DNA of 64,000 nt from Escherichia phage KookSpook. The notes below the pieces were generated by a model. That model worked only from the letters and a program-made list of their open reading frames with translations. It did no database searches and was not told where the DNA came from. Location of the stretch: the sequence record PP925842.1, one strand, 5' to 3'. Of this stretch, positions 49,482 through 50,331 are shown piece by piece (within the stretch, counting starts at the first letter, position 1; each line of letters opens with the position of its first letter). The position numbers and the translations under genes were made by a program.

Positions 49482-49850
49482 TTACCGTGCTCGAGATCTA
49501 GCATGTGGCTTAACGTTAGGTATTCTTCCGTTTTGCGGTTTATGCTTCTCGGCGCGTTTACGTGCAGCATCTACAGCTTTAGCATCAAATATATTGATAA
49601 TGTGTAGAACGAATTCTTTTTCTATAGGGTCAGTGATCCCATAAATATCAAATAAAACACCTAAAGCAGCTTTGTCTTTACCTATAAAAATAGGAAAGTC
49701 ACCTGGTATGAAGCAGTCAACTAGACTATTATAAATATTCATGCTAATAGCTACAATAGGAGGAAAATCTTCAAGTTCGACAGGCATAGCTTTAGGATCA
49801 GGCTCAATACCCATCGACTCACAAAGTATTAAATATTGTTGTTTAGTCAT
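49482..49850 (-). CDS. Tail assembly chaperone candidate (T-like position)
   Basis: 122 aa, no strong RBS. Its frame is open upstream into the last 26 nt of the preceding ORF, in the +1 frame. Confidence 0.5.
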   Translation of the reverse strand: MTKQQYLILCESMGIEPDPKAMPVELEDFPPIVAISMNIYNSLVDCFIPGDFPIFIGKDKAALGVLFDIYGITDPIEKEFVLHIINIFDAKAVDAARKRAEKHKPQNGRIPNVKPHARSRAR

Positions 49851-49911
49851 TTTAGATGCTGAGCTTTTAATACATTTATCTGCAAAATCAGCAACAGCAT
49901 CTAGGAGTTCT

Positions 49912-50331
49912 TTACGCTTTTGAGCTACGAAAAGTGTCTAAGTGGAACACTGTCTGGTTGATCCAAGAATCAAACGCAGCAGAGTTCTGCATAAGCATTA
50001 CAGCATTATCGCGGGTAAAAGGAACTTCAGTAGCAGGGTCAGCATCAGTTTCAATTAACATTAGTTTTTCAACATCACCTACTGTTAGGCCAGTCCAGCC
50101 TTTAATAGCTGCATCAACAAATGCTTCAATGAACTTGTCATCATCTTGTACTTGCATCAGTGTACCATTAACCCATTCATCGCGTTTAGCAGAAGAAATA
50201 ACACGTTTAGAGGTAGCACGAGACATATAATTGAGTTCTAATTTAAAGTTAGGCATACCTGGGTAAGAAAGAGTAATAGTACGGGTATCAAGAGTAATAT
50301 CTTTTAAATTAATCATTTTTAGTTTCTCCAA
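49912..50331 (-). CDS. Tail assembly chaperone candidate (G-like position)
   Basis: 139 aa, second ORF upstream of the tape measure gene. Confidence 0.5.
   Translation of the reverse strand: MEKLKMINLKDITLDTRTITLSYPGMPNFKLELNYMSRATSKRVISSAKRDEWVNGTLMQVQDDDKFIEAFVDAAIKGWTGLTVGDVEKLMLIETDADPATEVPFTRDNAVMLMQNSAAFDSWINQTVFHLDTFRSSKA

Follow-up and report, generated by a model that had tools for sequence, protein, structure and literature searches.

A conserved UUU_C site predicted to join the two tail assembly chaperone reading frames of T5-like phages by +1 frameshifting

Results

Two tail assembly chaperone reading frames precede the tape measure gene

We analysed a stretch of 64,000 nucleotides (nt) from Escherichia phage KookSpook (PP925842.1), hereafter referred to as the window, and describe here two neighbouring open reading frames (ORFs) on its minus strand, ORF A and ORF B, which are very likely joined in part of their translation by a +1 ribosomal frameshift. 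The locus is a T5-like phage region, with a 1.2-kb query around it (49300-50500) matching 444 phage records at 80-99% identity, and on the minus strand its genes are arranged as in T5, with homologues of pb6 and p140 followed by ORF A, ORF B, a terminator-like hairpin, the pb2 homologue, and homologues of pb9 and pb3 (Table 1). The T5 counterparts of ORF A and ORF B are T5.143 (T5p139) and T5.142 (T5p138), respectively.

Table 1. Features of the chaperone locus and its surroundings in the window (aa, amino acids)
Feature	Position	Strand	Details
Tail tube protein pb6 homologue	52625-51216	minus	Next gene upstream of the p140 homologue
Baseplate tube protein p140 homologue, 300 aa	50309..51211	minus	Pfam PF23779 (E 1.7e-139), PHROG 3889, T5 annotation
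GGAG Shine-Dalgarno sequence of ORF A	50326..50329	minus	9 nt upstream of the ATG; duplex energy -6.4 kcal/mol
ORF A, G-like tail assembly chaperone, 134 aa	49912..50316	minus	Standard-frame product; ATG 50316, TAA 49914-49912
Predicted fusion, 277 aa	49482..50316	minus	ORF A residues 1-129 (50316-49930), C49929 skipped, frame B 49928-49485
Overlap with frames A and B both open, 26 nt	49912..49937	minus	Any shift must fall inside
Proposed +1 shift site UUU_CGU	49927..49932	minus	Phe129 TTT 49932-49930, skipped C 49929, A-site CGT 49929-49927
26 frame-B codons before the annotated ATG of ORF B	49851..49928	minus	VAQKRKELLDAVADFADKCIKSSASK; translatable only via entry from frame A
Stem-loop in the frame-B linker	49853..49903	minus	9-bp outer stem UAGAUGCUG / CAGCAUCUA
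ORF B as in GenBank, 122 aa	49482..49850	minus	T-like C-terminal domain of the predicted fusion; ATG 49850, stop 49484-49482
Intrinsic terminator-like hairpin and T run	49415..49446	minus	11-bp stem, 7 GC pairs, T6; between the stop of ORF B and the tape measure start at 49398
Tape measure protein gene, pb2 homologue, 1226 aa	45718..49398	minus	Context defining the chaperone position

PHROG 313, a 258-position profile named 'tail assembly chaperone', matches ORF A over profile positions 12-141 (E 8e-34), while its positions 170-258 align to ORF B, which is also matched by PHROG 3914 (E 1.3e-56). As PHROG 313 spans both ORFs, the profile must have been built from sequences with both halves. Likewise, the two best Protein Data Bank matches to the predicted fold of ORF A were the HK97 tail assembly chaperone and YqbN. 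No Pfam-A family matched either ORF, with ORF A lacking a match even at E <= 1. From the profile matches, the position and the predicted fold of ORF A we conclude that ORFs A and B are parts of a tail assembly chaperone. An initial annotation made from the sequence alone had placed a 139-aa and a 122-aa ORF at the position of the G and T tail assembly chaperones and had named a profile search of both against tail chaperone families as a check; its assignment is borne out by gene order and by the fold of ORF A, and both ORFs do match such families (PHROG 313 and PHROG 3914). Separately, precomputed Pfam matches to PF27119 (Phage_YdaY), mostly weak, are present on several ORF A homologues from the metagenome contigs L147, L148, L149, L150, L151 and L154.

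ORF A ends with ...CAC TTA GAC ACT TTT CGT AGC TCA AAA GCG TAA, the stop codon occupying 49914-49912, and frame B, offset by +1 from A, has a TAG at 49940-49938 and then no further stop from 49937 until that at 49484-49482. The -1 frame is closed at the junction, where its open stretch is 7 codons. The initial annotation had given the 26-nt overlap, its sequence and its +1 frame, and these are exactly as found on the minus strand. Its 139-aa ORF is also real, although the start is more likely ATG 50316 (134 aa, as for T5.143) than TTG 50331. It had further described the 122-aa ORF as lacking a convincing ribosome binding site, and we found only -0.1 kcal/mol for the pairing between the anti-Shine-Dalgarno sequence and the 18 nt before ATG 49850, against a median of -6.0 kcal/mol over 52 gene starts in the window. 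This is weaker than at about 90% of those gene starts, and 72% of internal ATGs have a stronger pairing. The same layout is found in 58 T5-like loci (30 unique A-to-B sequences) and a +1 layout recurs in distant genera, and therefore it is not due to chance or to an error in one sequence.

A conserved chaperone frameshift of long-tailed phages, with lambda gpG/gpGT as the example, was reportedly described by Levin et al. in 1993 and by Xu, Hendrix and Duda in 2004. In these G/GT-type systems the fusion is produced at a low and fixed ratio and is needed for tail assembly, and neither of the two products occurs in the virion. In the window the interval from the tail tube genes to the tape measure gene is occupied by two consecutive ORFs; homology and fold identify the first as a tail assembly chaperone, and the second overlaps the first in another frame without a conserved start or ribosome binding site. 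No -1 heptamer of the form X_XXY_YYZ occurs in 49937-49912, although this feature is present in a sister clade (see below). The locus is a G/GT-type member by homology and layout, but with a different signal.

A UUU_C site is invariant in relatives with the +1 layout

The locus was compared with 146 related IMG/VR loci, 7 GenBank phages of other Demerecviridae genera and 8 metagenome contigs. These split into two classes, with ORF B in either the +1 or the -1 frame, and there was no exception. The +1 class comprises 43 unique junctions, all of which contain an in-frame TTT_CGN within the overlap at an invariant phenylalanine, Phe129 of ORF A. The metagenome contigs add 5 unique junctions (6 loci), which include TCC_TTT_CGT_TAG, ACT_TTT_CGC_TGA, AAC_TTT_CGT, and one ACG_TTT_CAG, such that a single +1 lineage has TTT_CAG instead of TTT_CGN. 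Members of the class are T5-like genera (Tequintavirus/Epseptimavirus-like), Sugarlandvirus, Serratia phage Kamaji, four Vibrio lineages (VPT02, Cilsick, JSF10 and 70E37.1) and uncultured IMG/VR lineages, and ORF A identity across them falls to 27-29%. The length of the overlap ranges from 14 to 122 nt, and at 14 nt it is essentially the motif alone, as in Vibrio phage 70E37.1 (AAC TTT CGT TAA) and in L149 (ACT TTT CGC TGA); the shift in these two must therefore be confined to the motif. The codon preceding TTT is variable across the class (ACT, ACC, TCA, AAC, GGG, TAC, AAT, TCC or ACG).

As a control for codon choice we used 16 representatives with the +1 layout, from about 13 lineages. All 16 encode Phe129 by TTT with a C directly after it, and the codon that starts with this C is CGT in 11, CGA in two, CGC in two and CAG in one. 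At three other conserved Phe columns the TTT:TTC ratios are 10:6, 6:7 and 11:5 (27:18 together), and for all Phe codons the ratio is 69:51. Given the background TTT frequency of 0.575, TTT in 16 of 16 would arise by chance with a probability of about 1e-4, or about 7e-4 when 13 independent lineages are counted. In the -1 class, by comparison, Phe129 is encoded by TTT in 11 and TTC in 5, which indicates that the third base of this codon is under protein-independent selection only where a +1 shift is needed. Phe129 itself is invariant in 61 diverse ORF A homologues and is followed by Arg in 33 of them. The tail of ORF A after Phe129 has 1-22 residues of unconserved sequence, at times just 'FR' and then a stop.

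Two other positions in the overlap were considered as slip sites and rejected. The first, AAA_G (49920-49917), on which tRNA-Lys would move from AAA to AAG, is replaced by AAA_T or AAA_C in the Klebsiella phages and has no equivalent in the Vibrio phages, and is also disfavoured by a TCA/CCA polymorphism just upstream that is synonymous only in frame B. The second, a slip at the last sense codon and stop (GCG_UAA), offers poor re-pairing and is not conserved.

A sister clade carries -1 heptamers at the same residue

The -1 class consists of 30 unique junctions, all from uncultured contigs, and every one of them (30/30) carries a canonical heptamer, namely G_GGA_AAC, G_GGA_AAG or A_AAT_TTT, ending on Phe129 or one codon before it. 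Further -1 heptamers, A_AAT_TTT and A_AAT_TTC, are found in L150 and L151. In a rough neighbour-joining tree, which carries no support values, the -1 loci cluster together, with L151 on an adjacent branch, and are nested among +1 lineages. The presence of +1 and -1 signals at the same residue indicates selection on making the fusion there and not on one particular signal.

No fused ORF was present among the best 150 of 427 matches when the 277-aa fusion was searched exhaustively with phmmer against 1.84 billion cluster representatives. These 150 are 46-171 aa long, and each covers either residues 1 to ~130 or residues ~128 to 277. A first homologue search with the fusion had given no match at E <= 1e-3 and is superseded by the phmmer search. 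The split layout is thus preserved by selection, in line with a need for both products.

The same data bear on whether the change of frame takes place at the level of RNA or DNA, through RNA polymerase slippage on the T run, a sequencing error, or pseudogenisation of a single gene, an explanation to which we give hardly any credence. Slippage-prone runs in bacteria have seven or more nt. A short T run is indeed present at the window site (CTTTTC), but T5-like phages have only 4 T there and most other lineages 3 T (AAC TTT CGA is one example), far short of known slippage-prone runs, and transcriptional slippage is disfavoured on account of this length of 3-4 nt. Some bacterial and phage genes do use transcriptional slippage, and the slippage-prone run of potyviruses is A6, in GAAAAAA (PMC5009743). 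Error or recent decay is ruled out because the split is identical in hundreds of genomes sequenced independently, with no fused form among the best 150 representatives. A change of frame during translation is left as the preferred reading.

The linker without a start codon evolves as frame-B coding sequence

Between the slip site and the annotated ATG of ORF B lie 26 frame-B codons, hereafter the linker, and frame B contains none of the start codons ATG, GTG and TTG before 49850. We examined the linker in the 30 unique T5-like sequences, in which 61 nt separate the stop of ORF A from the ATG of ORF B. The variable sites of these 61 nt are distributed over the three frame-B codon positions as 5:1:15 (chi-square p about 6e-4), with the body of ORF A (26:5:90) and ORF B (18:12:76) as references, and the ratio of synonymous-type to non-synonymous-type changes is 19:3 in frame B versus 1:23 and 3:19 in the other two frames. 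One variant, AGC to TCT, exchanges Ser for Ser in frame B. Furthermore, only 1 of the 18 dual-coding nt between the slip site and the stop of ORF A varies among these sequences, and this sole variable site (TCA/CCA) is synonymous in frame B and changes Ser to Pro in frame A. The linker aligns with the same segment in all clades, and in an AlphaFold model of the 148-aa frame-B part (predicted local distance difference test score, pLDDT, 86.6) residues 2-20 form a confident helix (pLDDT about 89). Judged from its coding-type evolution, the lack of an upstream NTG and the modelled helix, the linker is translated.

The start of ORF B is conserved within the T5-like genera only. Klebsiella phages have ATT or ATA as the homologous codon and Serratia phage Kamaji has GTA, and in Vibrio phages it is absent. 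Across clades a start first becomes possible 0-42 codons after the slip, at places that are not homologous, and in several lineages this is downstream of a conserved [MIV]TKEQY motif. The alignment of the B part across clades begins, by comparison, directly after the slip site. Scattered and non-homologous starts of this kind make independent initiation an inadequate explanation, and entry from frame A would account for them.

In Klebsiella phage PWKp9S (L060, MZ634344; 1589-2017) the second chaperone coding sequence (CDS) is annotated from a GTG that is made by the slip motif itself, TTT CGT GGT being read as TTC GTG in frame B, and in Roth37, Kamaji, Cilsick and others the second CDS is annotated from downstream ATGs, which cuts off conserved residues. 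The starts of the second ORF are thus annotated inconsistently across the family.

The linker also contains a stem-loop. A 96-nt stretch that includes it has a minimum free energy of -23.1 kcal/mol (z -2.73 versus shuffles), with the hairpin alone at about -20 kcal/mol. All 19 unique T5-like variants retain the outer stem, in which two changes were observed, one U-A pair being replaced by C-G through compensation (L087) and one by U-G. The 3' arm ends just before the AAA-ATG of ORF B, over the position of a would-be Shine-Dalgarno sequence, and the stem-loop would therefore mask ribosome binding at this ATG. We also considered the stem-loop as a frameshift stimulator and rejected this, since 27 nt separate its start from the UUU codon, which places it beyond the mRNA entry channel of a ribosome at the slip site.

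These observations bear most directly on the possibility that A and B are independent genes, with ORF B translated from AUG 49850 either de novo or by re-initiation 61 nt after the UAA of ORF A, and with the overlap being incidental. Two separate CDSs are annotated in all GenBank and RefSeq records examined, ORF B has an ATG in the T5-like genera, where some B-only or re-initiated synthesis is possible, and weak Shine-Dalgarno sequences also occur at other genes in the window, that of the tape measure gene being -4.2 kcal/mol. Likewise, a passage in the genome note of Klebsiella phage Sugarland, which cites Zivanovic et al. 2014, describes the T5 chaperone as being without a predicted frameshift signal (PMC6256483). 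However, the ATG of ORF B has a pairing of just -0.1 kcal/mol and a conserved hairpin (about -20 kcal/mol) locks up its upstream region, the preceding 26 codons show frame-B coding evolution and a confident helix in the model, and the start is not conserved in Klebsiella, Serratia and Vibrio relatives even though the protein alignment reaches the slip site. Independent genes would also leave unexplained the invariant TTT_C and the -1 heptamers of the sister clade at the same residue. We consider this explanation unlikely, and favour entry into frame B from frame A.

Proposed +1 shift and its product

On comparative sequence grounds it is very likely that a +1 shift at UUU_C yields a functional A-B fusion, because UUU_C is invariant at Phe129 in +1 lineages, because a sister clade has -1 heptamers at the same residue, because the linker evolves as frame-B coding sequence with no upstream start, and because the ATG of ORF B is not conserved beyond the T5-like genera. 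The initial annotation had tentatively proposed a +1 frameshift joining the two ORFs, and had pointed to conservation of the overlap in related genomes as informative. These four comparative results support its proposal and sharpen the site to TTT_C (49932-49929), and TTT_C at Phe129 is conserved in every +1 lineage.

The occurrence of the slip, its direction (+1 rather than -2), its efficiency and the functions of both domains are inferred. Most ribosomes starting at AUG 50316 would read UUU(Phe129)-CGU-AGC-UCA-AAA-GCG and terminate at UAA 49914-49912, which would give the 134-aa chaperone. A small share of ribosomes would have peptidyl-tRNA-Phe (anticodon GAA) on UUU in the P site with the A site waiting at CGU, and this tRNA would slip one base forward onto UUC (49931-49929), where it would pair better. 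Decoding would then resume at GUA (49928-49926) in frame B for 148 codons, to give the 277-aa fusion with the junction ...HLDTF|VAQKRK..., for which the predicted AspN junction peptide is DTFVAQKRKELL. Fusions constructed in this way across all clades are 252-277 aa long. In the lambda G/GT model, the shared domain binds the tape measure protein and the domain made only after the shift binds the tail tube protein (PMC5009743). By analogy, pb2, the tape measure protein, would here be coated by the shared N-terminal domain, the C-terminal domain made only by frameshifting would bring in the tail tube protein pb6, and the slip frequency would set the ratio of the 134-aa to the 277-aa product.

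The same frame would be reached by a -2 shift, as in phage Mu, and sequence alone cannot strictly separate the two. The product would contain ...LDTFFVAQK..., with one extra residue and the AspN peptide DTFFVAQKRKELL, and in the window ACU_UUU_C permits a partial re-pairing of this kind (UUU to CUU). However, after such a slip tRNA-Phe would face CUU, CCU, CAU, ACU, GGU, AUU or CGU across the +1 lineages, mostly with two mismatches, and the conserved base is the C after UUU (16/16), which is needed only by a forward slip. Furthermore, the influenza site has the identical motif, and there the +1 peptide was the only one detected, with no -2 product (PMC3498833). The lack of conservation in the codon before UUU speaks against a -2 shift, which we hold to be very unlikely, with the +1 slip on UUU_C remaining the preferred direction.

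Several points weigh against a programmed +1 slip at this site. CGU is the commonest Arg codon in the ORFs of the window (375/816) and E. coli also uses it often (20.2 per 1000 in a table of PMC3498833), so the usual A-site pause favouring a +1 slip is not evident. In addition, neither an upstream Shine-Dalgarno-like stimulator nor a suitably spaced downstream structure was found at the site, and slip efficiency may be very low. There are also 7 other in-frame TTT_CGN sites in ordinary genes of the window (for example at 60708, 36639, 10439 and 18505), and the motif alone therefore does not mark a programmed site. The +1 frames at these 7 sites close within 31 codons versus 148 at the chaperone site.

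Codon pairs encoding Phe-Arg in 52 long ORFs of the window are strongly skewed, with 8 TTT-CGN, 11 TTT-AGR, 15 TTC-CGN and no TTC-AGR (Fisher p about 3e-4), TTT_CGN being observed 8 times versus 14 expected. This skew is consistent with avoidance of the shift-prone UUU_C, but it could be a general codon-pair bias.

Discussion

Relation to known frameshift systems

The locus resembles lambda G/G-T in having two overlapping ORFs between the tail tube gene or genes and the tape measure gene, the second of which has no ribosome binding site of its own, and in its predicted products, a short standard protein and a longer one that shares its N-terminus and would gain a C-terminal domain through a late shift. 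The sister clade even shares the heptamer of lambda itself, G_GGA_AAG (L143). Unlike in lambda, the shift in the window would be +1 and not -1, and the site has no X_XXY_YYZ, being UUU_C, on which a single tRNA would slip in the P site. Also unlike lambda, 61 nt lie between the stop of ORF A and the first ATG of ORF B, and consequently there is no obvious overlap for annotators to see.

The nearest match to the signal is that of influenza A PA-X, where UCC_UUU_CGU is a +1 site proven by mass spectrometry with an efficiency of about 1%; the slip has been interpreted as P-site tRNA-Phe (anticodon GAA) moving from UUU to the better-paired UUC, with the preference for CGN left unexplained (PMC3498833). 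UUU_CGN has also been predicted for chronic bee paralysis virus, fijiviruses and amalgaviruses (PMC3498833, PMC5052127). The features of such sites that are present in the window are an in-frame UUU followed by a pyrimidine (TTT 49932-49930 and C 49929), CGT as the A-site codon, and conservation at synonymous positions beyond what the protein needs. A slow or rare A-site codon is absent, as is the E-site UCC, this codon being ACU in the window and variable elsewhere, with UCC only in L147/L148. The chaperone site thus shares with PA-X the UUU_CGN core, the proposed P-site mechanism and a deep conservation of synonymous sites, and here too low efficiency would suffice; the metagenomic relative L147/L148 has the complete influenza motif, UCC_UUU_CGU. 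It differs in its bacterial host, in which CGU is common, whereas the influenza class consists of eukaryotic RNA viruses translated by 80S ribosomes for which CGU is rare, and also in its unconserved E-site codon and in its product, a phage assembly chaperone.

Bacterial +1 sites of the form UUU_Y are known from E. coli argI (Fu and Parker 1994) and from the YopN-TyeA fusion of Yersinia pestis (PMC5009743). Both resemble the chaperone site in being +1 shifts at UUU_Y in bacterial translation without an adjacent stop, and the Yersinia shift likewise fuses two adjacent ORFs into a functional hybrid. However, argI is regarded as an error and YopN-TyeA belongs to a single lineage, whereas the chaperone site is conserved across a virus family and tied to a conserved fusion function. 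A bacterial +1 slip in the P site is also known from prfB (release factor 2; CUU_UGA_C), but the A-site codon here is CGT and the upstream sequence, CACTTAGACACT, has no Shine-Dalgarno-like element.

Non-canonical directions have precedents in phage tail genes. The chaperone gene pair of phage Mu reportedly uses a -2 frameshift, as described by Xu et al. in 2004. In the haloarchaeal virus HSTV-2 the chaperone frameshift is predicted to be 'very likely +1' (PMC5009743). Together with SPP1 gp17.1* (+1), these cases resemble the chaperone site in their non-canonical direction and show that -1 is not obligatory, but their signals and proteins are different, gp17.1* being a tail tube protein, and UUU_CGN is reported for none of them.

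Published status and implications

In about a dozen phage records that we checked, the two halves are annotated as separate CDSs, and RefSeq names both of them tail assembly chaperones. The literature searched contained no frameshift in the chaperones of T5 or other Demerecviridae and no phage UUU_CGN site, although either may still be published elsewhere, and the PRFect paper states that no general motif is known for forward frameshifts (PMC10885494). While the G/GT-type system is known, and the signal has precedents in eukaryotic viruses and at bacterial error sites, we did not find it reported for the T5-type family or for this function. It is likely that the UUU_CGN +1 signal is a family-wide bacterial case in which one sub-lineage has swapped to -1 heptamers at the same residue.

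T5 is a main model for siphophage tail structure and assembly, and a +1 shift at this locus, if real, would overturn the view that it has no chaperone frameshift. The 908 matching phage records would then probably share a two-CDS annotation that misses the fusion protein, and the rule of a G/GT-type pair for tape-measure-dependent tails would extend to a family supposed to be an exception. UUU_CGN would gain a genetically tractable bacterial example and a natural experiment in swapping between +1 and -1, in which the use of UUU_CGN, G_GGA_AAC, G_GGA_AAG and A_AAU_UUU at one codon would point to selection on the ratio of products and not on the mechanism of the slip. Furthermore, the related phages would provide matched natural constructs for comparing efficiency, and frameshift predictors could add a UUU_CGN motif.

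Neighbouring elements and database records

The terminator-like hairpin downstream of ORF B lies where T5 records annotate a putative rho-independent terminator. T5 has an extra endonuclease gene, T5.141, between this terminator and pb2, with a 4-nt overlap with pb2, and this gene is absent from the window. ARAGORN detected no tRNA gene in the window (1-64000), the typical T5-like tRNA cluster lying outside it. The closest record to 49300-50500, at 99.4% identity, is an unannotated 'Campylobacter phage C13' (MG065692), and records labelled 'Listeria phage' match the T5-like region at about 98% protein identity. Campylobacter and Listeria are implausible labels for a Tequintavirus-like phage, which suggests mislabelled or contaminating isolates in GenBank.

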